DNA from: a virus
Strand: one strand, 5' to 3'
IMG/VR virus record: IMGVR_UViG_3300025131_008477
Coordinates: 6,124-70,123 of that record
Length of the DNA: 64,000 bases
The translations under genes and the position numbers were made by a program. Numbering within the stretch: the stretch's first letter is position 1; every line of letters begins with the position of its first letter. Shown here in pieces: positions 1 to 50,943 of the stretch. The notes under the pieces are model-generated. The model saw nothing but the letters and a program-made list of their open reading frames with translations. It was not told the DNA's origin and searched no databases.

Positions 1-194
1 TTATGAACAACACCCTTACCATAATGATTAAATTCATCTACTTCATCATTATCAATACCATTCTGATATTCTAAATTAAATTGAAATGTATTATCAATTG
101 CATATCCCCTTATATCCTGATAAGAAGATTTCAAATTACCAAGACCAAAACCTGTACTGGCAACGTAGTGTTCATTATCTCTAATCGTTGACAT
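1..194 (-). CDS. Partial CDS running off the left edge (MSTIRDNEHYVASTGFGLGNLKSSY...), probably virion-associated
   Basis: ATG at 194-192 overlaps the upstream TAA (TAATG). The frame is open to position 1. Confidence 0.7.
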   Translation of the reverse strand, partial: MSTIRDNEHYVASTGFGLGNLKSSYQDIRGYAIDNTFQFNLEYQNGIDNDEVDEFNHYGKGVVH

Positions 195-3100
195 TATGCT
201 ACCTTCACCCAAGTATTATCTGGATTGAAATAAATAGTATCACTACCATAATTCCACCCAACTACTCTTCCTATATGACCGGATGTTGCAGATTTTGCAT
301 TTGACGCAGAACCAGGTGTTTCTAAATATAATGCACAACCATTGTCTCCACCAGGGTCATATCCTATATTTGCCATTCCTCTTAATAACATTCCATCTGA
401 TGTTGAATTTGTTCCTGCTGCTAAACCTAATGAAGATGAAGCATTTCCAAGTGAACCAGAATGAGCTAATACCCAACCAGAACCAGTATGAGCATATATA
501 GCACCAGCCACAGTTGTAGTATTTCCAAATTTAACAATATCACCTTGTACATTTCCAGTAGATGATATTGATGATGTTTCATATAATAATTGTGGTGTTG
601 CGTATATGTTACCACTTGCACTTATGTCGCCTTGTACGGTTAGTTTTTTTGTTGGGGTTGCTGTTCCAATTCCAATACGACTATTACCAGCATCACCATA
701 TAAAAGTTCATTTTCACTACTATCATATAAATTAAAATTTGCATCTACCTCACCAGGATTAATATCAAATGAATCACCAGCTTCCATACTAAATTGGTGG
801 CCACCACTACTGAGCTGATAAATAACATTACTTGCATTATCAGCTGATAGTGAATCGAGTGATATATCAACAATATTTGTAATATTAGTTCCATCATCAC
901 CAACGATATTTCCGTTAGCATTAATATCACCAGTTACTGTTAAATCATCGTCTATTTGTACATCATCCGAAGAATGAAAATGTTCTGCAGTTATTGTTCC
1001 ACTTGCACTTATGTTTCCACTTGCGGTTATGTTTGTTAGATTTAAATCACTACTTGCACTTATGTCTCCTTTTACGATTAGTTTTCTCGATGGAGATGTT
1101 ACAAGCTTCATATATTCTGTTGTAGTATCATCTGCTTCATGAAATAATAATTCACCATTAGTATATTGACCTACACCTATTCCATTGGAATCATCGTTGC
1201 CAAATTGAATCATTTTACTTTGACTTATCCATAAGGTGCTAGTTGGATACATCCCCCCAACATACAAATCACCACTTGCACTTATGTCGCCTGCTACGGT
1301 TAGGGTTTTTGTTGGAGCTTGTGTATGAATACCCACATAATTAGTATCACTGCCTGAAATAATTAGATTATCACTATTTGCTGGCATTCCCATACGCCAC
1401 ATATTAGATCCACTTTCTCTAAATAACCACTCCGCTGCACCCGTGCCACTATATCTATCTAAATATACTTGTGCATCTTTTTTGGTACTATTGGATGCTC
1501 TTAAAGATAAACGAGCCTGTCTTGAAGTATCACCTTGAATTTCAACTATTGAAATACCATCTCTAGCCCAACCTGGTTGTGGATTTATTACAGCATAACC
1601 ATCTAAATACAAATCACCACTTGCACTTATGTCGCCTTTTACAGTTAAGGTTTTTGTTGGGGTGGTTGTATTAATACCTATTAATGGTTCTACTAAATAA
1701 GAACCAGTTATAGTCAGAGCTATACCACCCCAGGCCTGAGATAAAATTATTTTTTTTGCTGTTACTGAGTTTCCAATTATCAAGCGATCACTACTGTCAT
1801 ATTGCAATTGGGCTGAAGCGTCTACGTGTGAACCTCCGGTCCATGAAAGTGTTGAATCGTTTTTTAAATACAAATTACCACTTGCACTTATGTCACCTTG
1901 TACGGTTAGTTCTACTGCAGAAGATGGGTGTACGGTTCCAACTGGAGCTTGAGTTGTTCCCGGAGGACCAATAACTGAAGCAGAAGAATATGTTATACCA
2001 CTCGCACTTATGTCACCTTCTACGGTTAGTTCATGTGGTGGTTTTTGTGTGTCTCCACCAACAGCCATTTTTCCGGAATATACATTAAATATAAATCTGG
2101 TTTTGGAACCAGAATTAAAGAAAATATAATCCAGTGCTTCACTACCCCCAGCGGATGCTGCAATCCGAGTTAGATTTACATCTCCCCCAAGACCAGTCCA
2201 CCCAACACTATTCGTAGTTCCAAGTCTAATCCCACCTGATTTGACTATTTTACTACTGGATATGTCTCCTTCTATATCTAAATCACCACTTGCACTTATG
2301 TCGCCTGCTACGGTTAGTTCCATACCCGGAGCTGGTGTTACAGAACCATCTCCACCATGAATAACTGATTGTGAAGAATAATTTACACCACTTGCACTTA
2401 TGTCACCTTGTACGGTTAGGGTTTTTCCACTTGAATATGAACTACCAACGCCTTTTGGTATACCAAATGAAGCTGTTAGAAAACTTCCACTCGGAGCTAT
2501 AATTTCATTCTCTGCTATAATGTCACCACTTGCACTTATGTCGCCTTTTACAGTTAAGGTTTTTGTTGGATCTGATGTTAATATTCCTATTTTTTCATTT
2601 GAACCAGATACAAAAAATAAATGATCATTTGTATCACCATCAACTCTAAAATCAAACGGTCTATTTTGAGTATTAATTTGTACCATAAAAGGAGTAATTC
2701 CCAACTTTGGGAAGTCTCTAGATAATGGATTAGAATCACCCTCTGTTGAAACATAAAATCCTAAATTATTATTAGTGACATCATATGAATTATTATTAAA
2801 TTCTATAGATAAATTAGTTGATGAATCTGCGTCTCTAATTTCATCTGTTGATATATATCCAGCCATCAATGATTCAGTAATGTAATTATAAGACAATCTG
2901 TTGACATCCAAATTATTAACACCACTTATATTAAAAGTAATAGATTTTGAAGCACTAATCTGATATTCATCCAACTCATCATTATACCCAATTAATAAAT
3001 CATTTCTCGGAGCTATTGATGCTGAAGTTAATTGAAACTTAATATATCTATCACTTTCTCTGTCTATTTTAAATGGTAAATCAGATGTAACTGTACCTAT

Positions 3101-3613
3101 ATTAGATAATGCCATATTATTTACAACATTTAATGATTCTGCTACAACATCTCCCCTAAAATAATGTCTTTCAGAACCACTAACCAATCTAAACTCATCT
3201 GTAAAATACCACAAATCCTCCGCTAATCCAAGTGATGTACAAACCTTTTCACCAAAAAACTTAAATCTTCTTAATTTATCAGAACCGGTTATTCCATTTG
3301 TAATAAATTGTATAGAACCAGTATCCGTTCCATCATTGAGACTGGAAGAAAGATACATATCATTTTTAAATGTTTTATTTACATTAAATTGGTCAGCTGA
3401 AGAAGAAAATATAAATGCATTTTGAAAGGAACAAGAAATTGAACCAGTTATTCTATTCCAAACTTGTGATGACGACATTGCATAATTAGAAAAATTATCA
3501 CTATTAAATAATGATTGACTAATTGAGGCAGTATTTTGGTTTTCACACGCAATGTATGAAAATTGTTTACCACCAACTGTTTCTTCTAAAATTCTTAAAC
3601 CATATTTTGCCAT
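194..3613 (-). CDS. Tail fibre-like protein with repeated IGIxTxxPTKxLTVxGDISASG modules (1139 aa)
   Basis: About 10 (G/N)DISASG repeats separated by variable segments. Gly/Ser/Thr-rich, with IGIGTATP-type fibre motifs. Confidence 0.75.
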   Translation of the reverse strand: MAKYGLRILEETVGGKQFSYIACENQNTASISQSLFNSDNFSNYAMSSSQVWNRITGSISCSFQNAFIFSSSADQFNVNKTFKNDMYLSSSLNDGTDTGSIQFITNGITGSDKLRRFKFFGEKVCTSLGLAEDLWYFTDEFRLVSGSERHYFRGDVVAESLNVVNNMALSNIGTVTSDLPFKIDRESDRYIKFQLTSASIAPRNDLLIGYNDELDEYQISASKSITFNISGVNNLDVNRLSYNYITESLMAGYISTDEIRDADSSTNLSIEFNNNSYDVTNNNLGFYVSTEGDSNPLSRDFPKLGITPFMVQINTQNRPFDFRVDGDTNDHLFFVSGSNEKIGILTSDPTKTLTVKGDISASGDIIAENEIIAPSGSFLTASFGIPKGVGSSYSSGKTLTVQGDISASGVNYSSQSVIHGGDGSVTPAPGMELTVAGDISASGDLDIEGDISSSKIVKSGGIRLGTTNSVGWTGLGGDVNLTRIAASAGGSEALDYIFFNSGSKTRFIFNVYSGKMAVGGDTQKPPHELTVEGDISASGITYSSASVIGPPGTTQAPVGTVHPSSAVELTVQGDISASGNLYLKNDSTLSWTGGSHVDASAQLQYDSSDRLIIGNSVTAKKIILSQAWGGIALTITGSYLVEPLIGINTTTPTKTLTVKGDISASGDLYLDGYAVINPQPGWARDGISIVEIQGDTSRQARLSLRASNSTKKDAQVYLDRYSGTGAAEWLFRESGSNMWRMGMPANSDNLIISGSDTNYVGIHTQAPTKTLTVAGDISASGDLYVGGMYPTSTLWISQSKMIQFGNDDSNGIGVGQYTNGELLFHEADDTTTEYMKLVTSPSRKLIVKGDISASSDLNLTNITASGNISASGTITAEHFHSSDDVQIDDDLTVTGDINANGNIVGDDGTNITNIVDISLDSLSADNASNVIYQLSSGGHQFSMEAGDSFDINPGEVDANFNLYDSSENELLYGDAGNSRIGIGTATPTKKLTVQGDISASGNIYATPQLLYETSSISSTGNVQGDIVKFGNTTTVAGAIYAHTGSGWVLAHSGSLGNASSSLGLAAGTNSTSDGMLLRGMANIGYDPGGDNGCALYLETPGSASNAKSATSGHIGRVVGWNYGSDTIYFNPDNTWVKVA
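612..2570 (-). repeat. Dispersed intragenic DNA repeat, coding-strand core GACATAAGTGCAAGTGG, about 10 copies
   Basis: Plus-strand ccacttgcacttatg (or 1-mismatch variants) at about 612, 999, 1051, 1272, 1617, 1878, 1998, 2286, 2388 and 2526. Confidence 0.9.
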
Positions 3614-3622
3614 AAAAAATTC

Positions 3623-4885
3623 CTAATTTGGGGCTCGGTCTCCTGATGTATTAGATATAATAAAAATGGGATCACCATTACTATCAAATTTTTGACCAAT
3701 TTTTGATGAAAATGGAGCTTGACCGAAACTGAATTGACCGGCTGTTGTTGTTACCAGTACTCTATTTGAAGCTCCAAATACAGTACTACCAGGAGATACC
3801 ATACCAGTACCATTCATCTCCAACCAATATCCAGTACCTGGATATTCTAACGTAAATTCATGTCCAGTTGATGAAGATCCTGAAAATGGATATGTATTCA
3901 AAGCTGATTGATTATATGAATTTGTAAATCTTAATCTAAATTTCATTTTAGTTGTCTGACCGGAAGGAGCTATAAAGAATTCAACCGGTACACTAAAGAC
4001 AGCTGAAACAGGGTTTATTCCTTCAGCATAATCCGGATGAATTCCTTCTTCAAAAATTGTACTGTAAGGTGTACCATCCGTATTAATTAATGGCCTGTTT
4101 CCCATTGGTTTCCAGTCCGGGTCAGTCGAATTAGGAATAGATCCACTTTTCCAATAATCTACATTAATTTGATGAACTTTTCCACTATATGTTTGTAAAT
4201 TACTAGCACTTATGGTAATTAAACTCTGTTGAGGTATTGGTTGGTCACTGTCATCCTCTCCTTCAACGATAATAGATTCACTCATAAAAAGTGCACCACT
4301 TCCGCTAGTCATTTCATTTGGATTTTTAAATATTATTGGTGATATATTATTATTATAATAAAGTTGGGTAGTACCAATATCAGTTGTTGATTGAATTGTC
4401 ATATCTAAATCTAAAAGAATAGTACTTCTTACATTATAAAGATTTCTCCAATGTGGATTTTGAGTGTCTGATATACCAACAACGGTCATAGTAGCATAAC
4501 CTTCTACGACTTGTTCATATGTTCTCAAAGGATCTTGTTTTATCCATAAATATCCCATAAATTTTAAACTATCCCCACTATGTAATGGAGTTACATCAGA
4601 AAATATAACTAATCCATTACTATCCTTAACTTCAAAAAGAATATTAGAACCTTGTTTTAAATTTGGATATCCACTTACTATTGGATTAATTGATATTCTA
4701 AAACCATGTTTTCCATAAGATAAAGAAGGTGTGGTGTTATTTGGAAGATCACCAAAAGATACATTAAAATATGTACCCATATTAACATCTCCTACTGGAG
4801 ATCCAGACATATCAATTTCATCTAAATTAAGTACAGCTGGGTATAGTATATCCTGGCTAAATTTCGGTGGAAATGTTTTTGGCAC
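3623..4885 (-). CDS. Hypothetical virion structural protein (420 aa)
   Basis: Long ORF with GTG start and AGGAG SD, a TATTTATA promoter motif upstream, and SGS/SAS-rich like the tail proteins. Confidence 0.6.
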   Translation of the reverse strand: MPKTFPPKFSQDILYPAVLNLDEIDMSGSPVGDVNMGTYFNVSFGDLPNNTTPSLSYGKHGFRISINPIVSGYPNLKQGSNILFEVKDSNGLVIFSDVTPLHSGDSLKFMGYLWIKQDPLRTYEQVVEGYATMTVVGISDTQNPHWRNLYNVRSTILLDLDMTIQSTTDIGTTQLYYNNNISPIIFKNPNEMTSGSGALFMSESIIVEGEDDSDQPIPQQSLITISASNLQTYSGKVHQINVDYWKSGSIPNSTDPDWKPMGNRPLINTDGTPYSTIFEEGIHPDYAEGINPVSAVFSVPVEFFIAPSGQTTKMKFRLRFTNSYNQSALNTYPFSGSSSTGHEFTLEYPGTGYWLEMNGTGMVSPGSTVFGASNRVLVTTTAGQFSFGQAPFSSKIGQKFDSNGDPIFIISNTSGDRAPN

Positions 4886-4916
4886 TACAATTCTCCTATT
4901 TATATAACTTGTCTTA

Positions 4917-4925
4917 TATAAATAT
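4917..4925 (-). promoter_or_regulatory. Putative phage late promoter motif (sense ATATTTATA)
   Basis: The same motif lies upstream of minus-strand units at 22154, 41411, 46429, 47746, 48885, 54064 and 54214. Confidence 0.65.
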
Positions 4926-4940
4926 ATAAAAGTTTAGTAT

Positions 4941-7900
4941 TTAGGAATAAATAACTTTACTAAGTCCGTTGTTTATGTTAATAGGAATTAACATATCCAT
5001 GTAATCTTTGATTGTATCGAGGTGTGTGATAATCATCACAAAGTCAAATTGTGTTTTTAGATACTGAAAAGCCCCTTCCATATTGGCTATATTATCACTA
5101 TCTAATGTACCAAATCCCTCATCAACGATTATAAAGTTAGGTCGTGGAAGTGTGGAAACATTGATTAATCCTATACGAATTGCAAGAGATGATACAAATC
5201 TTTCCATACCACTTGATAATTCAAGATTCCATTTATCGTCAGCATAACAGATAAATGCATCTATATTCTTATCTTTCATTTCAAGTTCTATATGGAAACC
5301 AGCCATCATATTCTCTAATACGTGATTTACTTCTCTTTCGATTGCTGGAATAGCTTTTGCTATCAATTCATATGGAATACCATCTTTTGAAAGTGTCATA
5401 AGATATAAATCATAATCAAGAATCTTCTGTTCTGTATCTATAAGTTCTTGTATATCTCTTTCAATGTTTTGTTTTTGATTTTTTGCTACTGATAAAGTAG
5501 ATAAAACTTCTTTATATTTGTTATCTACTTCTATATTATCCATTTGTAATTTAGATAATTTTTCTGTTATATCTGAAATTTGTTCATTTAATTTATGATT
5601 ACTTTCAATCTTTTCTTCTGATTTATAATATGATGAAATTCTTTCTTCATTATTTGCAATCTCTGTTTCTAAGTGTTCTAATCTTGCTTCCATTTGAGCA
5701 ATTTTTCCACCGATCTTTACAGCATCATGTGATACTTGACTTAATTCATCTTGAAATCTAGCGAACTCTTCTTTGTTTTCTTCTGCATCTTCTACTTTAC
5801 CAAAATTATGTTTGTATATTGTATGCATTCCCATAGCAGCTGTGTGTTCATTTTCAAGTTGTTGTAATTTATTTTGATGATGTTCTTGTTCTTGTATTTG
5901 TTCTTCACCATTTTTTAAACAATACTCACAATTTTCATCATATTGAAATTTTTCTAAATCTTTTAGATGAGATTTTAAAGATTTTATCTTAGATTCAGTT
6001 ATTTTTATATTGGATTCTGTATCTCTTAAAGATGATTTTAAACCCTTATATTCTTCATAATCATCTTGTATTTTTTCTTCATCTATCTCTGCAAGTTTTT
6101 CGTGATATTCCATATATAAAGGTCTTAATGTTTCTTTATATTCACTATCCTCTTCAAATTGTTTTTCTAATTGTTTTTGTTCTGTTAAAAATTCATCTGC
6201 TTGTTTGTGTAACTCATCAATATCATAAGATTCATCTATTTTATATAAACCTCTAACTAACTCTAATTTCTTACCTTCCAAGTCTACAATCTGTTTCATT
6301 AAATCTTGATCTTGTTTATTTAAACCATCTTGTTTTTCTTCTAAATCTACTATTTGATTTTCTGTTTTAGCTAATTCTCTATAACTATCTTTCTTTTGAA
6401 ACCTTTTAAGTGATACTCTTTCATCATTTGAATCTGATTTAGCTACAGCTTCTAATTGTTCAAAGATATCAATATCCATAAAAGTAGATAAAACTTTCTT
6501 TCTTTCGGCTTGTTTTTTGTCTATAAAGTTCATTCCATTGGTTTGTAAAGAAAGACTTGTTAGAATAAAATCATCAAATGTCCCCAACACTCTTCGTATC
6601 TCTTCATTTGTTCCACCACCATATTGTGAATTAAAACGAGCTGCCCCACTTAAATCTACTTCCTCACCACTATCATCAATCATATAGAATCGCACTTTGA
6701 CAGGACACATATGAGATTTAGTTCCATCTCTATGTTGTCTAACCTTATATTCAGCATCTCTCTCAATCCAATAGTCTAATCCGTTGATTTCAAGATTAAG
6801 TCTAGCTCTAAATGTCTGTTTCTTCTTATTCATCACATCAAGAGCCCTATTTGTTCTACTACACATATCATATATAGAATATGAGATAGCATCCATAAGA
6901 GCAGACTTACCAGAATGGTTAGGAGCTACAACTCCGACAGTTCCATTGAGTTTTGTAAAGTCAATTTTATTACCTTTACCATAACAGAACATATTATCGA
7001 ATTCAAATGACTTAATTTTCCAATCTACATTTCTTGTTATATCACCATCGTATATTTCAGGTGAATTATTTGTTAATTCATTTATTTTCTTAACTCTTTT
7101 TATTGATTCATCGTCTATACCTATAGCATTTCGTTTCAGAAAATCTTCTATAAGTTCGTTCTGATAATTTAAATCTCTAACATCACCAATATCTAATTTA
7201 TTTTCTCTATCATCTCCAATAGAAAGATTATCTTGTCTTTCAGTTACAACATCTTTAAGTTTTGGATATTTTCGCCGTAAATCCATCTGTATGTCTTTGA
7301 TTTGTTCAAGAGTTGTATCCCAATATTTAATTTTAACTCTACCTTTTATTGGCACAAAATTCATTTTATTTTGTATTACACCACTCTCTACATTTATAAT
7401 CTTAAATCCATAATCATTTTTTACAGGGTGGTATTCAGCTTTCTTTGTTTCTAAATCCCAAAGTAAAAATCCATGTGATGGTCTTTCTCCAAAATTCTGT
7501 TGAATAAGAGAACCAGGATAACCAATAGTTTTATCATCATTTAAGAATTGTCTCTTATGAATATCACCCAACAAAACTACATCATATCCATCAAATGTAT
7601 CAAGTTTTACATGCTCATCTCTAACTACAAAATTGTTATCATATTCGTGTTTATCTACACCACCATGAAATAATGCTACTGTTTTATGAGCTCTCAAAGT
7701 TTTTGGGTCTGGTAAATTATTGGTAAGTTGGTTTCCACCTTTATCTCTATCGTATATTGACATCACACCGAAATCTACATCATCAAGTGTGTAAGTTCCC
7801 GATTTTTTCCAATAATGAAGATGTGGGTCAATTTTTTTAACCAAATCTATAATAGGTGAAAGCGTATCCTCTCTTGATTTGTTGTTGAGATTACAATCAT

Positions 7901-8144
7901 GGTTTCCAGGTATAACAATAGTTGTGGCTATTTTACACAAAGATAAAAAGAAATTTGCTACCATTCTAACCTCTTCGGGTGAAGTATCTAACTTCCCATG
8001 AACTACATCACCACCTATGTATATAAGATCTGGTTTTACAACTCTTAATTGTTTATATAACTTTTTAAATACTTGTCTGTATTCTACAAATCTATGTAAC
8101 TTACGGATATGAATATCCGCAAGATGAGCTATTGTTTTTATCAC
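4941..8144 (-). CDS. Fused Mre11/SbcD nuclease and Rad50/SbcC ATPase (T4 gp47-gp46-like), 1067 aa
   Basis: Metallophosphoesterase motifs DIH, GGDVVH, GNHD and GDIH. Walker A PNHSGKS, coiled coil with CEYC zinc hook, signature LSSGME, Walker B/D-loop IVDEGFGTLD, H-loop ITH. Confidence 0.92.
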   Translation of the reverse strand: MIKTIAHLADIHIRKLHRFVEYRQVFKKLYKQLRVVKPDLIYIGGDVVHGKLDTSPEEVRMVANFFLSLCKIATTIVIPGNHDCNLNNKSREDTLSPIIDLVKKIDPHLHYWKKSGTYTLDDVDFGVMSIYDRDKGGNQLTNNLPDPKTLRAHKTVALFHGGVDKHEYDNNFVVRDEHVKLDTFDGYDVVLLGDIHKRQFLNDDKTIGYPGSLIQQNFGERPSHGFLLWDLETKKAEYHPVKNDYGFKIINVESGVIQNKMNFVPIKGRVKIKYWDTTLEQIKDIQMDLRRKYPKLKDVVTERQDNLSIGDDRENKLDIGDVRDLNYQNELIEDFLKRNAIGIDDESIKRVKKINELTNNSPEIYDGDITRNVDWKIKSFEFDNMFCYGKGNKIDFTKLNGTVGVVAPNHSGKSALMDAISYSIYDMCSRTNRALDVMNKKKQTFRARLNLEINGLDYWIERDAEYKVRQHRDGTKSHMCPVKVRFYMIDDSGEEVDLSGAARFNSQYGGGTNEEIRRVLGTFDDFILTSLSLQTNGMNFIDKKQAERKKVLSTFMDIDIFEQLEAVAKSDSNDERVSLKRFQKKDSYRELAKTENQIVDLEEKQDGLNKQDQDLMKQIVDLEGKKLELVRGLYKIDESYDIDELHKQADEFLTEQKQLEKQFEEDSEYKETLRPLYMEYHEKLAEIDEEKIQDDYEEYKGLKSSLRDTESNIKITESKIKSLKSHLKDLEKFQYDENCEYCLKNGEEQIQEQEHHQNKLQQLENEHTAAMGMHTIYKHNFGKVEDAEENKEEFARFQDELSQVSHDAVKIGGKIAQMEARLEHLETEIANNEERISSYYKSEEKIESNHKLNEQISDITEKLSKLQMDNIEVDNKYKEVLSTLSVAKNQKQNIERDIQELIDTEQKILDYDLYLMTLSKDGIPYELIAKAIPAIEREVNHVLENMMAGFHIELEMKDKNIDAFICYADDKWNLELSSGMERFVSSLAIRIGLINVSTLPRPNFIIVDEGFGTLDSDNIANMEGAFQYLKTQFDFVMIITHLDTIKDYMDMLIPININNGLSKVIYS

Positions 8145-9040
8145 TCAAATTCTCCTATTTTCATTTTAATAAATGAAACCATTTCTTCTGCTATATTTTT
8201 CTTTGTAAATGTTTCTGTACCTTCAAAACCTGGATTTGAATTTACCTCACATATTTTATACCCCTCACCATCAAATAATAAATCTACACCAGCTATATCT
8301 AAATTAAGAACTTTAGATGATTCTGTAGATAACCATTCAATTTGTTCATTTACCTCATACGGAAATCCTTCACCACCACGATTAAGATTTGCTCTAAAAT
8401 CTTCATCCGTTGCTCTTCTCATCATACAACCAACAACTTTATTATTTACTACTAGTACTCTTAAATCTTTTCCCCAACTATCTTTTATAAGTTCTTGTAT
8501 AATAATATCATATCGTGGATTTGTAAGTTCAGCCATTGTAATCAACTGTCGTAATTGTTTCTTATTATCTGCAATAAACACACCCTTACCATAACTACCA
8601 CTTATTGTTTTTATAATAACAGGAAATCCAAGATGTTTTTGAACAAAATCTACATCAATTGGATGTTTTAATAACAATGTTTTTGGAATATCAAGATTTG
8701 ATTGTGCAAGTATCTGATGTGAATATAACTTATCTTTTACATTATCTATAGCATCACTGCCATTTATAACCACCACCCCCATTCTCTCAAAATGTCGTAT
8801 AACTGCTTTTATATAATAAGTTGTTCCACTACCTGTTCTTGGAAATACAAATTTAGGTAATGATAATGATTCTCCATTAACTAATATAGAACTTTTATTA
8901 TCTTTATTAACAAAAATATCTATTTCAGTTGGATTAATAATTCTAACACTAACATCATGATTCTTAAATTCTTCAACCAATCTATTTGTTTCATAAGAAT
9001 CGTGAAATTGTGGTTTAACCAATAACCAACCACTAACCAT
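8141..9040 (-). CDS. rimK: RimK-family ATP-grasp alpha-L-glutamate ligase
   Basis: DK...QILA, FPVIIKTISGSYGKGV, IQELI, DLRVLVV, FRANLNRGG, AGVDLL and CEVNSNPGFEG motifs. Confidence 0.88.
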   Translation of the reverse strand: MVSGWLLVKPQFHDSYETNRLVEEFKNHDVSVRIINPTEIDIFVNKDNKSSILVNGESLSLPKFVFPRTGSGTTYYIKAVIRHFERMGVVVINGSDAIDNVKDKLYSHQILAQSNLDIPKTLLLKHPIDVDFVQKHLGFPVIIKTISGSYGKGVFIADNKKQLRQLITMAELTNPRYDIIIQELIKDSWGKDLRVLVVNNKVVGCMMRRATDEDFRANLNRGGEGFPYEVNEQIEWLSTESSKVLNLDIAGVDLLFDGEGYKICEVNSNPGFEGTETFTKKNIAEEMVSFIKMKIGEFE

Positions 9041-9956: not shown

Positions 9957-9987
9957 AATATACTACTATTTTACTATATAAATCAAG
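9957..9987 (-). promoter_or_regulatory. Sigma70-type promoter (CTTGATT-N18-TATATT) upstream of primase
   Basis: Same architecture as the elements at about 45473, 48248, 51608 and 59245. Confidence 0.55.
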
Positions 9988-10495
9988 CTTTTTCTTTAAA
10001 AAGTGACATAACCAATCCGTCATATGCATCAATATTCCGTTTATCCCAATTTCCCCTTGTTGTGTGTTTACACCATTTCTTTGTATCATATAACTCTTCT
10101 ATTTGTCTTTTAACGAAATCTTTCGCTTTAATACCCTTAACTCTCGCTTTACCGAAAACTTGTTTACGAGCCGTCATAGGATTCACATTTTTTACTTCAA
10201 TATCAAATGTATCCTCTATCACATAACAAAGAACAGCGTTAAACTTTGCAAGTTTAACAATGACCTGTTGAGATGTCCTTCCACCAGCAAATCCTGATAG
10301 ATTATCCTCAACATATACTTTTTTAACATCATCAATATACGAACTTTCATTGATACGAGTCAAGACATAAAATGCTTTTTCTTTGTGAGTTGTGAATTTT
10401 TTGATATCGATGAAACCCATATCAAGTATTTTTTTGTTTTCTGTAAATGCATATCCTACACAAGATGTGGATATGTCTAACCCCAATATAACCAT
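9983..10495 (-). CDS. RuvC-like Holliday junction resolvase
   Basis: ILGLDISTSCVGYA, VYVED and C-terminal DAYDG acidic RNase H-fold residues. Confidence 0.8.
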   Translation of the reverse strand: MVILGLDISTSCVGYAFTENKKILDMGFIDIKKFTTHKEKAFYVLTRINESSYIDDVKKVYVEDNLSGFAGGRTSQQVIVKLAKFNAVLCYVIEDTFDIEVKNVNPMTARKQVFGKARVKGIKAKDFVKRQIEELYDTKKWCKHTTRGNWDKRNIDAYDGLVMSLFKEKA

Positions 10496-10502
10496 ATTTT
10501 TC

Positions 10503-13500
10503 CTAAAATTCTAATTTAACTTTAATAACTGCTTCTCTTGAAAAGTTTTTCTGTAAGGATTTACTTAATGCAGCTATAGCTACACAAGTTCCATAATTAT
10601 CATATAAATGAACTTGTGTTATAAATGACTGAGGATCACCATCCATTGTTGATGAACCTGATATATAATCAACACCGTCATATCCAGTATAAGAACCACT
10701 AGTAATAATAAATCCACCCTTTCTACCAACATCATTATTAAACATATTTCTACCTGATCCACTTAAAATAGTAAAATTATTTGTATGATTAAAATGAGTA
10801 TTAGGTATTCTACATAAATAAATTACATTTGTTACTTCTTTTTCACCAAACAAAGTTAAAGAATTTCCACTAACATTTCTCATAGTATTTACAAAACGTA
10901 ATGCATTTTTATCATCTTGATTAGAAGATGTTAATGGATAAAGTTGATCATGTCCACTATTTTTATATAAGAATGAGCCACTAAAAGTTCCTCCACCCCA
11001 ATTTGAATTTAGACTCATACTTGTTTGATTTTTAATTGAAGAAATAATAAATTTCTGAGAATACTTCTCGTTCCCACTTCCACTATCAATTCTAATTGCA
11101 TCCCCAACTACAAGAGATCCTGTGAAATTAGTCCCGCTTCCAGAAATTTGTTTTGATCCATTAGATGCGGTTATAGTACCAGTAAGTATAGAATATCCAC
11201 TTTTATTAAATTCAGCAATTTTTGGATTTTTTACTGATCTAAATTCATTAGAAAGTTTTTCACCAAATACCATCAAACCAACATCAGGATAAATATAACC
11301 ATATCTCCCACCCACAACATTTCCAACCATAGAACCGGCAGATCCAGAAACTATACTATATACATGACCAGCATCTGTTACATTAGGTGGTGTTGTAACT
11401 ACCTTGCTGTCATCAGTTAAATGAAGAGTTTTACCACTACCATTTGAATCTGATCCACTTAATGTCAAAGTCCAATTTCCAGATTGTAATTGATCTTTAA
11501 ATCTTGATTTTTTAAAGTTTAAAATATATATCCAATTATCGACATTACCATCATTACCATCAGATCTAACATCTGAACCGGATGATATTAAAAATCCTTT
11601 ATCTATTCTATCAGGATCTAATAAAGCTGATGCATATTGTCTATATACAGCTTCAGAAGCTCCTTTTATATCATTATTATTTGTAATAGAACCAGACCCA
11701 AATCTATGACCCCATGTGATATAAAACTGTGTATTAGATTTTGGTGAATTTGGATCACCGTCTGTAACTCCAAAATAATATTTCTTATTCGTATCTGCCA
11801 TAGATGCTGTATATATAGAACTACCACTTATACCACTATTTTTATCAACACTGTCACCCGTAAAATAATTAATTGTTTTCATACCACTTTTTATAATTTT
11901 ATCATGTCCTAATTTTGCAGTTCTTATTGTTAATGGTATGCAATTACCACCAGTACCACATGAAGTACATTCAAAACCCAATGTCGCCAAATAATCATTA
12001 TCTACCAACCCACATGGGTAAGGATCTGTGTAACATATAGAAGCATCTCCACCATCACTACATTTAAATTGACCAGAAGGAATTTCTGTAGTAATAAAAT
12101 CTTGACCATATGACATTGATACTGCCGTTTCATCAGCCCAAAACTCTGTCCACACAGGTGCACCAGATGGTATATTCATGTCTCCATCAATCATACTTTC
12201 TATATATTGAGCAATATCATATCTACCCAGGTCTTCCCATAAACCCTGATCAGTTGAATCTAACTGACCATCACCATTTAGGTCATAATCTTCAAAGTAT
12301 TCAATACCAAACATGGAATAGTCAAATCCTCCTTGTGGAAAATATCCATACCAAGTATATTCCGCGGTAAGATCATTACCACCTTCCACACTCTTCAACC
12401 ATTGTACTCTTTGTATAAATTCAAGTGGTCTGGAATCTCCTTGACATGCAGTAGTGGTCTGACCGGATTGACCATATGAAGATATACAATTTGATTGTAT
12501 CAATGGACTGTCTGCCAGTCCACTTTTCCACCGTATCCACAACCCATCATATTCAGATATTATATTATCACCCATCGCCGACTCTTGACTTTCAGTTGGA
12601 AATTCAGCTGAACAATTATTTATTATATCAGCAGCACAATATTGCCAACAAGCGTCTGTGTTTGGGAAAGTATCATCACACTCTCCTGTAAGACTTGTAT
12701 CTTCTGGATGCATCCATTGAATATCATTACTATCTGCTGAATGCACATGTGTAACATCTAACTCTCCTCCATGTTGATAAGATAAACCATATATATTAGC
12801 ATGTAATGCCTGTACCATCTGAACGGTTGTCATATCACCACCATAACTACCTTCTGGTGGACCATATGTATTTCCCCATTTAAAATGAAGGTAATCATCA
12901 TAACTACAACAACCTGGAAAACTACCACCACATTGTGTTGTAGCTTCTGGCCAATAATTTCTAGCTTGAGGATCAGTACACCCAATGATAGAACAATCAG
13001 TTAAATCTTGAATTCCTCCGGTGTCACCATCATCCCAACCGAACTCCGTTCCAAAAGATGCATCAGGATTATTTGGGTCTGATACTGTAATACTTAAATT
13101 AGCGGTCAGCCAACCGACAGGTGCGGCCATTAAACATGCTGGATATGAAGCTTCACCTGATACTGAATCTGAAACTGTTGGACAAATTTTATTCCAGTAT
13201 AATTGAAAATTACCATCAAACTGTAAATTACCATTATAAAGTAAAGCACAAATTCCATCTCCACCAGCACCGAGTTCTCCATTTGTCTCTATAGTCGATA
13301 ATTCATTATTATTTAAATATAAAGTTGTTAAACTTGTTAAATCTTGTATTTGTACTGGTATTATACCAGAAGCATCACCAGCGCCAAGTGAATTATCAGA
13401 TAAATCTAATGTAGTTAAGGAAGTTGCGTTTCCTATCGATATTGGTATTTCTGTTAAACCAATATTACCTGCAATAAAAGATGTTAAATTTCCATTTATG

Positions 13501-32773: not shown

Positions 32774-35410
32774 TTATCCCCTATCTTTTTTCAATTCATC
32801 TATTTGTTTTTGTAAATCAATTATATATAATGTAAGTTCCTCAACTTTTTCAAGAAGTTTCATATCTCTATCAGCCATAGTTAATTGTGACCAATCATCG
32901 TTATCTGCGGATGGTACTCCGGGTAAATGTTTATATTCAGTAATATGTTGTTCAACTTCCGGTAAGGTTTTCAATATATATTGTGGTTCAAATACATAAT
33001 CTGGAATTGTTGCACCATCATCATAAAATTGAGCCGAATATATATTTCCACTTGCACTTATGTCTCCACTTGCGGTTATGTGAGTATCTACAAATAAGCC
33101 AGGAGAAGTGTTATAAATCTTTACTTTTCTATCGTCAGCAATTTCAAATATAGTACTACCATCTTCATTTAAGTTTACACCAGTTTTACCTTCTAATGTT
33201 AATGCACCAGCTGAAGTTTTCCAAAGAGAAGTGTTATTTGCAGTTATAGCCAATCCACTATTTACAGTTGTAATTGAAGAAACATCTCCACTATCTCTAG
33301 CATCAATTACAATAGATGAACCTTTTAAAGCACCACTTGCACTTATGTTTCCACTTGCGGTTATGTGGCCAGTTACATCAATACCAGCATTTTCTACTAC
33401 TAATTGTGGTGCACTATGTTCATTACCTCCATCTCCTTGACCAGTTCTTAAATCATAACCGACACCTATTTTAATTTTAGTAAGAGTATTTACAGCGTTT
33501 ATAGAAAATGCTTCATAATTACTTGTACTATATCTAATACCACCACCAAAAGTAGCATCTGATGGACTTCCAAACCACAGTGGCCTGTCATTAGCGACAG
33601 TCATAGCACCATGTGTTTTATAAAGACCATTAGCCGCATTATTACCAAATCTAGCTGTAGCAAACGAAGCAGTTGTTGATGATGAACCACTTATGTTTCC
33701 ACTTGCGGTTATGTGGCCTTGACCTGATAGTGTAACTGATTTATTAGCACTTCCACTTATTGTTACAGAACCAGAGATGAAATTAGTACCTCTGTTATTT
33801 AAATTAACCCAAGTTTTAGAATCTAATCCTGTTATTACAAACTCTCTGTGATAACCAGAAGAATGAGCCCAAAGATAAAAAGTAGATTGTCCTGTATTTG
33901 TTGAAGAAAAGACAGTTACATCACCACCTGTTGTAGATGGTCTAATATGTAAACTACCACCAGTAGCACCAGTACCAATATTTACGCTATCACTTGTAGT
34001 TCCACTTAATTTAAGTTGTGGGGCATCGACAGTACCTATGAGATCAAGTTTACTACTAATTATTGTTCCACTCGCACTTATGTTTCCACTTGCGGTTATG
34101 TGGCTATTAAATGCAGAACCACTAGAATATATTTTAAGTACTTCAGTATTACCACCAACTTTAAAGTCAAGATAATCACCATTATTTGTATATAATATAT
34201 ACCCAACATCATTATCATCAGAGTCACCAAATAGTATTCCTTCTGGACTAGAATTGGGTGATAATAATTGGATAAAATTATTATTATTATTTTCTAAACA
34301 AAATCCTGAATATGAATTAGCTTGAACATCACCAGCATTACCTTTTCTTATATGAAGTAAAATATTAGTATCCGGTGCAGTATCACTACCTAATACCATA
34401 TTTTTACCAAAATATGTTTGTGAACCACTTATATTTCCACTCGCGGTTATATGACCACTAAATGTATTTGATACTATAGAAGTATTACCAATAGTAACTG
34501 TGTTAGAACCCTTACCTTTTGAACCACTACCAATTACAATTTCGTTATCAACAGAACCACGACTTGAAGATGCATAAGTTCCTATATATATACTTCCTGT
34601 TATGTTATGGGTTAAATCAACTACTAAGTTACCAGCATACTTTCCAACAAAAATACTATCATTTGCAAATGCATTTGTTTGAGAACCACCATTTATTCCT
34701 GCTTCCGCTCCTAAATATACATTATCGTCACCCTGTACACCAGCCCCGGCGTTACGTCCAACACCAATATTATAACTTCCCATTGAAGGTCCACCATAAA
34801 GAGCCCTATAACCCAAAGCGGCATTATAAGTACCTGTACTTACATCACCTTGTCCCATCGCTTGATGTCCGACAGCGGCATTACCAGCACCAGTATTTTT
34901 ATACACAGCCGCACTTCCAATAGCCGTAACATCTGCCCCCACCTCACCTACCTCATTCCCAAATACGGTAGAAGTATTAGAACCCACACCTTGATTATAC
35001 TTATCAAGTTGAAGTATGTTAAACGAACCAGTATTAGCTTGTGCAATTCCACTTGAACTTATATTTCCACTTGCGGTTATACTCCCCACAAATTTATGTG
35101 TATCATTGTCTGAATCACCAAATACAGTTGAACCACTTGCCTGTGCAATAGACATTGATGTAACAGAAGATGAAACTATATATTGTTGTGCATGAACTGA
35201 ACCATCGGTATATATATCCCCACTCGAACTTATAATACCAATTATATTTATATTACCATCACCGGGTAAATATACCCCCGTACCAGAACCACTTAAATCT
35301 GCTATTTCACCAGATGCTGATACTTGTAGTATTTGTTTATATACCGTCTTTAATGGTTTATTTCCTATATCTGCCGATGGGTTGAGTTTCCATGATTTTA
35401 TTCTTGCCAT
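32774..35410 (-). CDS. Trimeric tail fibre with YadA-like head repeats, HITASGNISASG modules and a C-terminal chaperone-like coiled coil (878 aa)
   Basis: NAAVGHQAM/NAALGYRAL/NIGVGRNAG repeats. C-terminal PDYVFEPQY...HLPGVPSA...LLEKVEELTLYII resembles S74-like chaperone tails. Confidence 0.8.
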   Translation of the reverse strand: MARIKSWKLNPSADIGNKPLKTVYKQILQVSASGEIADLSGSGTGVYLPGDGNINIIGIISSSGDIYTDGSVHAQQYIVSSSVTSMSIAQASGSTVFGDSDNDTHKFVGSITASGNISSSGIAQANTGSFNILQLDKYNQGVGSNTSTVFGNEVGEVGADVTAIGSAAVYKNTGAGNAAVGHQAMGQGDVSTGTYNAALGYRALYGGPSMGSYNIGVGRNAGAGVQGDDNVYLGAEAGINGGSQTNAFANDSIFVGKYAGNLVVDLTHNITGSIYIGTYASSSRGSVDNEIVIGSGSKGKGSNTVTIGNTSIVSNTFSGHITASGNISGSQTYFGKNMVLGSDTAPDTNILLHIRKGNAGDVQANSYSGFCLENNNNNFIQLLSPNSSPEGILFGDSDDNDVGYILYTNNGDYLDFKVGGNTEVLKIYSSGSAFNSHITASGNISASGTIISSKLDLIGTVDAPQLKLSGTTSDSVNIGTGATGGSLHIRPSTTGGDVTVFSSTNTGQSTFYLWAHSSGYHREFVITGLDSKTWVNLNNRGTNFISGSVTISGSANKSVTLSGQGHITASGNISGSSSTTASFATARFGNNAANGLYKTHGAMTVANDRPLWFGSPSDATFGGGIRYSTSNYEAFSINAVNTLTKIKIGVGYDLRTGQGDGGNEHSAPQLVVENAGIDVTGHITASGNISASGALKGSSIVIDARDSGDVSSITTVNSGLAITANNTSLWKTSAGALTLEGKTGVNLNEDGSTIFEIADDRKVKIYNTSPGLFVDTHITASGDISASGNIYSAQFYDDGATIPDYVFEPQYILKTLPEVEQHITEYKHLPGVPSADNDDWSQLTMADRDMKLLEKVEELTLYIIDLQKQIDELKKDRG
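33048..35240 (-). repeat. Dispersed intragenic DNA repeat ATAACCGCAAGTGGAAAYATAAGT, 6-7 copies, sharing its core with the repeat in 194-3613
   Basis: Plus-strand cttatrtttccacttgcggttat variants near 33048, 33333, 33687, 34068, 34425 and 35049, with a degenerate copy near 35221. Confidence 0.88.
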
Positions 35411-35423
35411 TTATAATTCTCCG

Positions 35424-37622
35424 TTATCTAACTATCCCTCTTATATTTTTATTTGGATTTTTTAATTCAAACACTGACGGTTCATATGCTGGTAATATAA
35501 CACCATTACCAGCCACATTATCTGTACCATAAAATTCACTAAAATCATAATAATATCCATAACCAACATTAGTACCTGAAGTTGATGTGGTATTATCAGA
35601 ACTTATCAATGTAGTATATAATCCAGGTGTAAAAACTGCTGCTTCAGCACCACTTGCTCCTGCCTGTGCATTATAATCTTTATCTTGTGTTATTGTTACA
35701 TAATTTACAGCCCTAACACCATCTACATCCATCAATATCTGACTTACATCATTTGTATATAATATTTGTTTGAATTGCATTTTATCTACTGTAAAATAAT
35801 TTTTTACTGCTTGAATACACCTGGCCTTTACATCTTCTTTATTTTCATATTGTTGTGCTACAACATCAAATACTACACCAAAATTAATTACATAACCGTC
35901 ATAAAATGATACTTGATCTGTTATCATTCTATATTGATTTAAATATTGTTTAAGATTTTGTTTAACTATATTTGGTGTATTGATTAAATTTTTATTATTA
36001 TCATAAGATAATAAATATAAATCTACTGTATATAATCTATCATCCTGTGATACATTGGAATGTGCCATTTCTAATGTTTCATATAACATTTCAAAATCTT
36101 CTTTATTTAAACCACCACTCTTATCAGCATCCAACTTTAATTTTATATCATTAATTATTCCAACTTTACCACCAGCTGATAAACCTGGATCGAACATCTG
36201 ATAATTCAAATCTATAACTTCTTTTAATCTGTCAACCAAATCAGCTATCTTCTGTCTCTGAGCTGTTCTAACTGCTCCCGATCTTACTGAATAAACTTTT
36301 GCCATATTTCCAAACTTAGCTGGCATAGTTAATGTTCTAGCTTCAAAATCTGATTTTGTTACACATCTATTTTGAGTAGAAAAATGTCCCATTGTTCTAT
36401 GTCTAATTTCTTCTAAAGTTTCTCCGGATGAACCACCAGCAGCTGGTCCTTCGTTTGTTACAGTTATATTACCAATAGTCCCAGACCCAATTATATCAGA
36501 ATCACTAATATTAATCAAAATACCAGATGGTATATTAGCACCAATACCACCTCCTATTCTATATGTAACAGTTAAAGTTGTATGTGCTGGTGCTTGTCCG
36601 AGAGTTCCATATGCATCCCCCAAAAGTGGGTCAATTTCAGATTCTAAGCTTTCTTCCCCACCTGGCAAGTTTATTCCTTGTTGTTCTACTGCTAAAAATG
36701 TAGAATCAAATGTGTTACCATTTTTTAATACACCATTACCAAACATTAAAGATGTTTTATTATTCTCATCAACTTCAACTGTAAATCTTCTACCGGTTTT
36801 TATATATTCTAAAGAATAAGGCACTGGTATAGAAATAGTAGAATCACCACTTAAATTACTATACGATGTACTTCTATTACTATCAGAACTATAATGTTTT
36901 TCAATTGGAATCTTATCTTGAGCTAAAGTTGCAACTTCATACCAAATATTATTATTAATATCAGTAACTTTTAATACTTCAATAATATTTGTTTCTGGTA
37001 AAGTTAATTTTAAAAACTTATTTGGTTCTCCTACATTAAAAGTAGTTGTTGTTGTTTCACCACTTATAGCTTTTACTTTTCGTGTAAATATATGTTCATT
37101 AGGCACTCCTGTAGAACTATCTATGCTTGAAACCTCTGGTGCTGTATCTGCTGATGAACTTACTTTAAAATCTACTATATCTAATGTTTCAAATATTATA
37201 TCTGAATCTATAGAAGATGCTATTTTCATCCCTTTATCAATTGTTACGGCGCTGCTATAATCTGGAGAACCATCAGCATTAGATGTAGTAACCGTATCTT
37301 TTACAGTTAAATTAACGTAAGCTGGTGTTATAGCTTTGGTTTTATATCCATATGATTTTGCTAAAGTAATTAAATTTTTTCTATCTTCACTTAGAGGTAA
37401 TAACATTTCTCTATATTGTTGGTCAACATAAAAATTTAATACATCACCAACATACGCAGACAGTTCAATTAACATCATACCAGGAGATGTTTCATTAAAA
37501 TCTTTATATGTATTAGGAAAATACGATTTAGTATAATTTATTAAAGATCTTTTTAAATCATTGAAATCTTTCCCCACATAATTAATATTGCTATTTTTTA
37601 ATTCATTTTTACCGTAAGGCAT
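35424..37622 (-). CDS. Baseplate wedge subunit (T4 gp6 / baseplate J-like)
   Basis: YVGKDF...YFPNTYKDFNETSPGMMLIELSAYVGDVLNFYVD; TYRIGGG..AN; ETLEEIR...QNRCVTKSDFE. Confidence 0.88.
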   Translation of the reverse strand: MPYGKNELKNSNINYVGKDFNDLKRSLINYTKSYFPNTYKDFNETSPGMMLIELSAYVGDVLNFYVDQQYREMLLPLSEDRKNLITLAKSYGYKTKAITPAYVNLTVKDTVTTSNADGSPDYSSAVTIDKGMKIASSIDSDIIFETLDIVDFKVSSSADTAPEVSSIDSSTGVPNEHIFTRKVKAISGETTTTTFNVGEPNKFLKLTLPETNIIEVLKVTDINNNIWYEVATLAQDKIPIEKHYSSDSNRSTSYSNLSGDSTISIPVPYSLEYIKTGRRFTVEVDENNKTSLMFGNGVLKNGNTFDSTFLAVEQQGINLPGGEESLESEIDPLLGDAYGTLGQAPAHTTLTVTYRIGGGIGANIPSGILINISDSDIIGSGTIGNITVTNEGPAAGGSSGETLEEIRHRTMGHFSTQNRCVTKSDFEARTLTMPAKFGNMAKVYSVRSGAVRTAQRQKIADLVDRLKEVIDLNYQMFDPGLSAGGKVGIINDIKLKLDADKSGGLNKEDFEMLYETLEMAHSNVSQDDRLYTVDLYLLSYDNNKNLINTPNIVKQNLKQYLNQYRMITDQVSFYDGYVINFGVVFDVVAQQYENKEDVKARCIQAVKNYFTVDKMQFKQILYTNDVSQILMDVDGVRAVNYVTITQDKDYNAQAGASGAEAAVFTPGLYTTLISSDNTTSTSGTNVGYGYYYDFSEFYGTDNVAGNGVILPAYEPSVFELKNPNKNIRGIVR

Positions 37623-45516: not shown

Positions 45517-46395
45517 TTATTGTTTTAGTTTATAATAATGTTCACCATGACTCTTTTGAACATCATAAGATCCATCCACATTAGCTTCTATTTCTTCATC
45601 ATGTATCCACATAGATATTGTTTTTTCAGCTGAAACATCATCCATAATATTAAACCCATCATGGTATCTTTTAAGAAGTCTTTTTACCATAGGATGTCTT
45701 ACAATATCTTTTTCTTTAAATTGAGCCAACCCAACACCGGTTACACCAGCAAATCTTTTAATAGCATCTTCTAAACCACTTTTTCTATTTCTTAAATCAG
45801 ATTGTTCTAAGTCACCAGTGACTATATATTTACTATCTTGACCTATACGAGTAACAAACATTTTAATTTGTTCTGGTGTTGCGTTTTGTGCTTCATCGAG
45901 AATTACAAATTTATTAGAAAGTGTGATACCTCTCATAAATGCTAACGGCATTACTTCAACAATACCACCTTCTTTTAACATTCGTAATCTTTGTTTACCG
46001 ATAATCTGTTCCATGTTATAATAAAATGACATCATCCAAGGTGCTGTTTTTTCTTCTATATCACCTGGTAAGTGTCCTATCTTTTCACCATCCGCTTCTA
46101 CCAATGGTTTAACAATAATGATTCCATCTATTTTAGAATCCTTATTACCTAACTCTCTTAAAGCTCTATGAACCGATAAGTATGTCTTACCACACCCAGC
46201 GGGACCTATACAGAATGTTACATCTTTTTTAGTAATGGTATTGTAAAATCTCTTTTGTGCTGGAGTCTTAAATTCCATTTCATCAAAATTTAACTGTTTT
46301 AAGTCCTTTAATGCTTGTCGTTTATTATGTATTGCGTGATTATTTAGTTGTGAGATTGTAACCTTTTTGTTTTGAGAACTTCTAGTCTTACTCAT
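45517..46395 (-). CDS. phoH: PhoH-family ATPase
   Basis: GPAGCGKT, GHLPGDIEEK, PLAFMRG, ILDEAQN, TRIG, GDLEQSD and DIVRHP. Confidence 0.93.
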   Translation of the reverse strand: MSKTRSSQNKKVTISQLNNHAIHNKRQALKDLKQLNFDEMEFKTPAQKRFYNTITKKDVTFCIGPAGCGKTYLSVHRALRELGNKDSKIDGIIIVKPLVEADGEKIGHLPGDIEEKTAPWMMSFYYNMEQIIGKQRLRMLKEGGIVEVMPLAFMRGITLSNKFVILDEAQNATPEQIKMFVTRIGQDSKYIVTGDLEQSDLRNRKSGLEDAIKRFAGVTGVGLAQFKEKDIVRHPMVKRLLKRYHDGFNIMDDVSAEKTISMWIHDEEIEANVDGSYDVQKSHGEHYYKLKQ

Positions 46396-50942: not shown

Positions 50943-50943
50943 T

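Follow-up and report, generated by a model that had tools for sequence, protein, structure and literature searches.

The window analysed here is a stretch of 64,000 nucleotides (nt), positions 6,124 to 70,123 of IMG/VR record IMGVR_UViG_3300025131_008477, and the record itself, of 70,123 bp, linear class and 33% GC, comes from a large, uncultured tailed phage of seawater origin that infects bacteria. Near one end of the window lies a fibre-like gene, P0001, in which ten copies of a short motif, LTVxGDISASG, join variable modules between an N-terminal head and a C-terminal domain. Copies of this motif are spelt alike at the nucleotide level throughout the gene, in at least five of the record's fibre-like genes and in a wider family of uncultured marine phages, and stretches of high similarity between related genes end at the motif more often than expected at random. 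The features concerned are given below, those of P0001 in the direction in which the gene is read.

194..3613, minus strand: fibre-like gene P0001, 1139 amino acids (aa), consisting of an N-terminal head, ten motif-joined modules and a C-terminal domain
2909..3613, minus strand: N-terminal head, aa 1-235, common to genes of very different length
2525..2557, minus strand: joint 1, LTVKGDISASG, spelt TTA ACT GTA AAA GGC GAC ATA AGT GCA AGT GGT
2387..2419, minus strand: joint 2, LTVQGDISASG, starting CTA ACC GTA CAA GGT GAC
2285..2317, minus strand: joint 3, LTVAGDISASG, starting CTA ACC GTA GCA GGC GAC
2249..2269, minus strand: degenerate copy GDISSSK, with GAC ATA TCC AGT AGT
1997..2029, minus strand: joint 4, LTVEGDISASG, with Ala spelt GCG
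1877..1909, minus strand: joint 5, LTVQGDISASG
1616..1648, minus strand: joint 6, LTVKGDISASG
1271..1303, minus strand: joint 7, LTVAGDISASG
1049..1081, minus strand: joint 8, LIVKGDISASS
998..1030, minus strand: joint 9, variant B, ITASGNISASG, spelt ATA ACC GCA AGT GGA AAC ATA AGT GCA AGT GGA
911..931, minus strand: degenerate copy GDINANG, not codon-locked (GAT ATT AAT GCT AAC)
611..643, minus strand: joint 10, LTVQGDISASG
197..610, minus strand: C-terminal domain, aa 1002-1139, common to otherwise differing fibres
32774..35410, minus strand: second fibre-like gene, 878 aa, adjoining the baseplate wedge gene
35048-35068, 34067-34087, 33680-33700, 33332-33352 and 33047-33067: five variant-B copies in the 878-aa gene
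35424..37622: baseplate wedge gene, phrog_219

Searching the window with AGGNGACATAAGTGCAAGTGG at up to three mismatches returned 14 matches, every one on the minus strand, where 0.01 would be expected by chance and none of 100 shuffles attained 14. Ten of these fall within 194..3613 and four in the second gene, within 33048..34088. Seven of the P0001 copies have no mismatch (at 612, 1272, 1617, 1878, 2286, 2388 and 2526), two have one mismatch (1050 and 1998) and one has two (999), and all translate as LTVxGDISASG with the exception of one LIVKGDISASS and one ITASGNISASG. A first-pass annotation of this stretch had described about ten direct copies separated by unrelated spacers, along with a degenerate GDISSS that uses TCC, and had argued from the orientation of the copies that they do not constitute an invertible shufflon; ten were indeed found, all of them direct, the degenerate copy was located at 2249..2269, and this part of the description holds. 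Copies start 51-438 nt apart, and the spacers are dissimilar to one another save for a lead-in, GI(G/N)TxxPTK, that precedes four of the joints, which speaks against the copies being recent duplicates of one unit. Exact identity between copies spans 24-47 nt, with joint 1 equal to joint 6 over 47 nt, joint 2 to joint 5 over 33 nt and joint 3 to joint 7 over 38 nt, while joint 9 matches copies from the record's other genes exactly over 34-41 nt. At least five open reading frames (ORFs) in the record bear the motif, spelt either LTVxGDISASG or ITASGNISASG. The first-pass annotation had taken the modules for receptor-binding ones, which is not borne out, most modules of P0001 probably being shaft modules; in PHROG the protein gave a weak match to phrog_3269, a 'tail protein'.

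The same annotation had reported near-invariant synonymous positions in the repeat and had proposed that it is constrained or homogenised at the DNA level. Across the ten P0001 copies, Asp is GAC at 9/9 positions, the tenth copy having Asn as AAC, and Leu is CTA in 7/9, Thr ACC in 7/9, the first Gly GGC in 5/10, Ile ATA in 10/10, Ala GCA in 9/10 and Ser AGT in 20/20. Four of these codons are rare in the 50 other ORFs of the 70-kb record, namely GAC (169/1585, or 0.11), CTA (95/1397, 0.07), ACC (138/1512, 0.09) and GGC (67/1869, 0.04), whereas ATA, GCA and AGT stand at 0.50, 0.41 and 0.31; outside its motif copies, P0001 itself uses GAT at 63 of 75 positions. The codons fixed in the copies, some of them rare, thus far exceed chance. 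Although the observation that both serines are AGT is correct, its value as evidence is largely lost to codon-box lock-in, because no synonymous step joins the AGY box to the TCN box and a conserved serine therefore stays in its box, and AGT greatly outnumbers AGC in this AT-rich phage. The serines are thus weak evidence, and the informative codons are GAC, ACC, CTA, GGC and ATA.

P0001 has 86 homologues, every one of them from a marine metagenome and without a name, and on sequence comparison they are mosaics. The head is 40-61% identical to that of P0003, P0007, P0005, P0021 and others, in proteins of 658-1973 aa, and a profile built from it matched 280 clusters (50% identity) at E<=1e-3, 110 of them at E<=1e-30. 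A search with the head only yielded 83 loci, whose ORFs carry 0-25 motif copies; complete ORFs with the head, present at 22 of the 83, range from 218 to 2685 aa. The genes thus have a conserved N-terminal part and a variable distal part and, in this phage, occur alongside a baseplate gene, as is characteristic of fibres.

To gauge spelling across the family we used a head-ascertained sample, chosen without reference to the motif, of 58 ORFs with 256 motif copies. This revealed ATA at 242 of 256 Ile positions (background 0.50) with ATC at only 2, GAC at 83 of 122 Asp (0.13), AAC at 104 of 134 Asn (0.16), ACC at 90 of 145 Thr (0.06), GCA at 136 of 190 Ala (0.40) with GCT at 30, and GGC at 33 of 256 first Gly positions (0.02); the last Ser was AGT in 256/256 (0.35), and the first was AGT in 199 copies and AGC in 1. 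When IMG/VR was scanned for an exact 17-mer, 41 loci were found, almost all of them large ORFs with several copies, whose proteins are 21-31% identical to P0001 outside the head. With the 33 scan-ascertained copies set aside, 139 copies remained in 41 ORFs, and these used ATA at 136/139 positions and AAC at 63/103. The gene, the set of at least five fibre-like genes and the family as a whole therefore all keep the motif's spelling constant, and the proposed constraint or homogenisation at the DNA level is borne out at each of these scales. For 20 motif copies embedded in stretches that are 80-97% identical between genes, third positions diverged at 18 of 207 sites (8.7%) inside the motif versus 5101 of 22720 (22.5%) outside, while first and second positions diverged at 8.8% inside and 9.8% outside. 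Copies within an ORF shared codons more often (0.799) than copies from different ORFs (0.681), a difference attained in none of 300 label shuffles.

Such spelling could be fixed by some other function of the DNA or RNA, such as a binding site, an mRNA signal or avoidance of TATAA, with exchange as a by-product. About 30 nt are conserved across rare and common codons alike in many phages, in keeping with this, and GAC or AAC ahead of ATA avoids the promoter-like TATAA that GAT ATA creates; however, 10-25 copies within one coding region ill suit a regulatory site, and TATAA avoidance leaves the choice of ATA over ATT, and of ACC, GCA and GGC, without explanation. We therefore regard this explanation as very unlikely.

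A structural model was generated for three copies of aa 840-1139. It gave an ipSAE (interaction prediction score from aligned errors) of 0.84, as against 0.00 for the best of three controls, with at least 90% contact agreement between runs and a pLDDT (predicted local distance difference test) of at least 87. Of 30 proteins solved as one-chain pairs, 20 reached the ipSAE mark, compared with 1 of the 23 solved as single chains; these counts serve only as a rough guide here, where the alignment was our own and three copies were modelled. The inter-chain contacts of least error involve segment residues 151-160, that is aa 990-999 at joint 10, and the model thus places the motif at the interface between the chains of a predicted homotrimer. 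P0001 had no match at E<=1 when compared by sequence with the chains of the PDB, so the model's pass is not an obvious case of recall. A monomer AlphaFold2 model of aa 1-700, from a 25-row alignment, had a mean pLDDT of 49.8, with the shaft below 50. When it was searched against 48,161 PDB representatives, the best Z was 4.8 (flagellin/FliD domains and T7 tail) over residues 1-144 only, which is below noise, and no fold was assigned. The Pfam matches of P0001 to MliC, Bactofilin and MinC_C (E<=1) were likewise set aside as beta-rich repeat noise, 0 stretches passing alone. Two entries in the ESM Atlas serve as leads only: T4_gp9_10_N in 33% of one cluster, with a score of 0.89, and gp37_trimer in 11% of the members of one cluster.

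If the motif does lie at the modelled trimer interface, its amino acid conservation has a structural reason, and its nucleotide conservation needs another. This bears on the possibility that the constraint is on the protein only, with recombination occurring anywhere, through illegitimate or microhomology events, and only products joined at module boundaries surviving a folding filter; the fixed codons would then stem from another cause, for instance local translational selection or codon-box lock-in, without any role in promoting exchange. The interface position of the motif favours such an account, as does the last serine, whose AGT at 256/256 is explained by lock-in in the AGY box together with AT bias. 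Anticodons of the GNN type pair exactly with RAC and ACC codons, and selection for accuracy at critical residues could favour these. The same selection predicts ATC and AGC, however, and the copies use ATA at 242/256 (ATC 2) and AGT at 199 positions versus AGC at 1, so that translational accuracy was rejected as sole cause; nor does it provide a rationale for GCA over GCT (136 vs 30), for CTA or for GGC. In addition, divergence at third positions is 2.6-fold lower in the motif with first and second positions equal, and codon sharing that is greater within a gene than between genes points to homogenisation and not to a uniform translational optimum. Taken together, we consider a protein-only constraint unlikely, though the foremost of the alternatives.

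To locate the ends of similarity between relatives, 128 motif-bearing ORFs were compared all against all as DNA, 112 of which were left after near-identical ones were removed. High-scoring segment pairs (HSPs) that were at least 85% identical and no shorter than 250 nt had 101 ends internal to both genes, and an end was counted as lying at the motif if it was no more than 6 nt from a 33-nt joint. By this measure 41 of 101 ends lay at the motif in either partner, whereas 1000 random placements averaged 15.6 and never exceeded 28, and windows shifted by 50-160 nt held 4-15 ends in either partner and 0-8 in both. Ends at the motif in both partners numbered 26, drawn from 19 ORF pairs. The first-pass annotation had proposed that the copies act as crossover points and had suggested looking in related phages for the same modules in different orders, and the relatives show both exchange ends at the motif and such reordering. 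Three of these genes (L100, L101 and L102) share 95-97% identity as far as the final base of one joint, and once more from the following joint onwards, and hold three unrelated modules between the same two joints. Motif-bounded modules have also been relocated, with 3601-3996 of L007 corresponding to 6439-6834 of L068 at 96.7% identity, and with further examples in L022 and L103 (96.8%) and in L070 and L096 (94.7%). In seven genes with the same head the modules are mostly unrelated, and those in common differ in position or order, reading A.CB..DE.. in L064, A..BC. in L080 and ...F..DE... in L068.

Similar boundaries are seen in proteins aligned to P0001 itself. The similarity of P0015 and P0018 begins at residue 771 of P0001, the first residue of joint 7, and that of P0013 to the C-terminal half begins at residue 569, the first of joint 5. 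The module between joints 5 and 6 recurs in P0002, non-colinear and with 62% aa identity; P0014 is 63% identical to the C-terminal region over residues 962-1139; and P0012, P0017 and P0023 have both ends of P0001 in proteins of 1911, 660 and 1338 aa, respectively.

We think it probable that the joints are in-frame short-homology sites for general recombination acting over evolutionary time. As the copies are direct and lie in a single reading frame, a crossover between any two keeps the protein in frame and places its junction at a module boundary. The motif, (GIGTxxPxK)LTVxGDISASG, would link consecutive modules of a homotrimeric fibre at its trimer interface, and its 24-47 nt of identity would be exploited by general homologous recombination or by template switching in replication. 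Partners could be co-infecting relatives, paralogous fibre genes or copies within one gene, and modules would in the course of evolution be gained, lost, replaced and reordered. The spelling may be kept uniform by repeated exchange, by gene conversion and by selection on lineages that are still able to exchange. While the repeat, its fixed codons, its spread through the family and the exchange ends at the motif in relatives are observed, we infer that homology in the motif causes the exchanges, and exchange may in turn alter host range.

Several points weigh against this proposal. The enrichment of ends at the motif is partly inflated because BLAST alignments run into the conserved motif by some bases, and ends at boundaries are also expected if only boundary recombinants fold. 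The ORF pairs behind the counts of ends, codon sharing and divergence are interrelated, so the counts are not independent events. Stretches of 24-47 nt are short for efficient RecA- or UvsX-type exchange, and no RecA match and no strand-exchange protein were found in the 70-kb record, for which CheckV gives a completeness of 38%. At the level of reads, no recombinant junction was obtained from the phage's own population, the four runs examined consisting of contigs broken at the motif. Finally, the identical 1139-aa protein occurs on 4 contigs and depth in one of these runs (X1) is even, which fits one dominant arrangement.

The read-level data come from marine runs, 24 of which hold words of the phage, with at least 84% of the words in 3. 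Four runs (X1, X3, X4 and X5) were mapped, with uncovered parts of X4 and X5 left aside; all four consist of Logan k-mer contigs interrupted at every motif, and the contig joints listed have sides of only 21-34 nt, the motif itself, for which other fibre genes are a possible source. In run X1 unique modules have an even depth of 19-32 (about 25), versus 350-4000 in bins holding the motif, an excess that arises because many other fibre genes in these waters carry it. The modules show 0 differences and a similar depth in runs X1 and X3. Short-read contigs end at motif copies (window 502-2672), and a metagenome contig identical to the head (L045) ends right before the first joint; because the repeat breaks short-read assemblies of these genes, the family will be under-assembled in short-read viromes. 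Run X5 contains a related strain that is identical in some pieces (1-313 and 1319-1631) but differs by 18 letters at 357-640 and, in the region 3195-4348, by 81 letters and gaps in the adjoining 420-aa gene; this is a mosaic pattern of strain divergence.

Breakage of short-read graphs at each motif, and the end of L045 before the first joint, might suggest that the architecture reflects recent tandem duplication or an assembler stitching modules of different phages together at common words. The same spelling in 58 independently assembled genes, the identical 1139-aa protein on 4 contigs and the modules with 0 differences and similar depth in X1 and X3 argue against both, and we consider such an origin highly improbable.

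A dedicated, cassette-like diversification system, as the first-pass annotation had envisaged, is not borne out. Its suggestion to scan the genome for the motif and for a recombinase succeeded for the motif, found in at least five ORFs, and failed for the recombinase, with no match to Resolvase (PF00239), Phage_integrase (PF00589) or reverse transcriptase (RVT_1, PF00078) in the 38%-complete record. The motif was in none of the six inverted-repeat pairs listed for the window, and among the repeat families of the window there was no template/variable pair with adenine-specific differences. Programmed diversification at high frequency would need a dedicated enzyme or pathway that acts at the motif and draws on the paralogous fibre genes for donor cassettes, and the presence of at least five motif-bearing fibre-like genes in 70 kb, the extreme codon fixation, a nearby Mre11-Rad50 fusion and RuvC-like resolvase, and a depth, within the same metagenomes, that is 10- to 150-fold greater for motif words than for the phage's unique modules are all compatible with it. 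The two recombination genes, however, belong to the standard replication and repair complement of large phages and have general functions, the excess depth of motif words is explained by the many other motif-bearing fibre genes, and the single protein on 4 contigs, the even module depth in X1 and the lack of Resolvase, Phage_integrase, RVT_1 and RecA matches in the record all speak against it; we find this explanation doubtful. A related scheme, in which the joint is a pairing or recognition site and the phage's own machinery converts modules among its five or more paralogues and burst genomes in each infection, strikes us as similarly doubtful. Were it true, a single lineage would keep producing fibre variants, the phage equivalent of antigenic variation through conversion of cassettes, with no need for an invertase or a reverse transcriptase.

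Recombination at short-homology joints, the reading we favour, has precedents in phage fibres. Tetart and co-workers reportedly described, in 1996 and 1998, motif-mediated exchange in the distal tail-fibre and adhesin genes of T-even phages. In the adhesin gp38 of these phages, glycine-rich motifs (GRMs) separate hypervariable segments (PMC3157838). As portrayed in the passages of that source on gp38, and as for gp37/gp38 in general, short conserved motifs divide variable segments and general recombination reshuffles the modules; P0001 likewise has ten joints with unrelated spacers between them, and exchange end points fall at the motifs in natural relatives. Unlike the T-even case, the motif and the protein described here are unrelated to those precedents, with no Pfam match to T4 fibre or adhesin families and no PDB match by sequence, a single gene holds ten joints and its relatives as many as 25, the joints are common to at least five genes, and the units are whole modules of 20-140 aa and not loops of one domain. 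Module order and number also vary here, whereas GRM synteny is described as strict in the relevant part of Trojet et al. 2011 (PMC3157838).

In Escherichia coli tailspike phages, conserved DNA motifs flank the sequence of the receptor-binding domain and have been proposed as recombination hotspots (PMC10408124). Like the present joints, those motifs, of 20-95 bp, are more conserved than their surroundings and flank an exchangeable part, and homologous exchange across genera is proposed for them; the passages concerned describe one to three motifs around a single domain, with 63-81% identity, one of them non-coding (PMC10408124). The motif described here, in contrast, is coding, occurs many times per gene and has near-exact identity with fixed synonymous sites; the number of joints per gene and the fixation of rare codons exceed what is reported in the passages on the T-even and tailspike precedents.

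Invertible fibre segments and shufflons (Gin/G of Mu, Cin/C of P1, Min of p15B and the R64 shufflon) rely on inverted repeats and a dedicated site-specific recombinase. In them, as here, short repeats delimit segments, and there the alternative C-terminal parts of a fibre or pilin give alternative host specificities; the copies here, however, are all direct, and the 70-kb record yielded no match to Resolvase or Phage_integrase. Diversity-generating retroelements (DGRs), as in Mtd of Bordetella phage BPP-1, depend on a reverse transcriptase together with a template/variable repeat pair in which the changes are adenine-specific. The likeness lies in a phage receptor-binding protein being diversified, in a targeted manner in the DGR, whereas the record has no RVT_1 match and the repeats here are near-identical joints of 24-47 nt. 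Neisseria pilE undergoes antigenic variation by gene conversion from the silent pilS cassettes. The vlhA system of Mycoplasma synoviae varies its antigen in the same way (PMC4206340). In vlhA, from what the relevant section of that source sets out, and in pilE, conserved stretches of partial copies guide the in-frame replacement of variable segments, much as the joints would; those systems are programmed, act at high frequency within one cell line and serve one expression site, while the present case is known from sequence comparison.

The principle of shuffling modules at short motifs is thus already in print, with a motif and a protein family unrelated to the present ones, and because it is not new, the value of these observations lies in breadth and quantification and not in a new mechanism. 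No description of the motif was found in the literature, and the matches listed for a full-text search with 'ISASG', in which supplementary tables were outside the scope, included no phage fibres. Phage host range is largely determined by fibres. An abundant family of uncultured marine phages appears to build its fibres out of exchangeable modules linked through a single DNA word, and the joints predict the positions of exchange, which provides a testable handle on how natural phages rebuild host recognition. The 17-mer can in addition serve as a practical marker for fibre genes that annotation pipelines leave unnamed.

The wider record is consistent with a large tailed phage. Its completeness of 38% suggests a genome size near 180 kb, and 50 of the 51 ORFs that reach 100 aa are encoded on the minus strand. 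Neither megablast with positions 1-8000 of the window nor tblastn with P0001 matched any of 50,697 phage records, these searches for cultured relatives having been run with the low-complexity filter on and with near records possibly omitted; protein patterns from P0001 and the adjoining 420-aa ORF turned up no close relatives in IMG/VR. Other annotated features are as follows.

4941..8144, minus strand: Mre11-Rad50 fusion ORF, 1067 aa, with Metallophos at aa 4-197 and a Rad50/SbcC-like ATPase (phrog_77) at aa 308-1066
8141-9040: RimK-like ATP-grasp protein
9983..10495: RuvC-like resolvase
10503-17576, minus strand: giant ORF of 2357 aa, in which aa 2132-2230 resemble the tail-fibre families phrog_1980 and phrog_17834
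29723-30823 and 30824-32770, minus strand: proteins bearing a carbohydrate-binding module of type CBM96 (E 2.8e-9) and, as a weak match, a disaggregatase repeat
45517-46395: PhoH
48902-49936: GMP-reductase/IMPDH family protein
49915-50493: peptide deformylase
50490-50993: thioredoxin
54417-56282, minus strand: full-length Hsp70/DnaK, 621 aa (PF00012, E 1.8e-263)

The Mre11 and Rad50 counterparts of T4, which are fused here, are the separate genes 47 and 46. The 2357-aa ORF had no match outside aa 2132-2230. A DnaG-type primase, a Dam-type methylase and a trypsin-like protease are also encoded in the record. The proteins with CBM96 and disaggregatase-repeat matches sit between fibre-like genes and may be glycan-binding or glycan-degrading tail appendages. 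The RimK-like ATP-grasp, GMP-reductase/IMPDH family, peptide deformylase, thioredoxin and PhoH genes make up an auxiliary set, and the full-length Hsp70/DnaK is an unusual cargo for a tailed phage.

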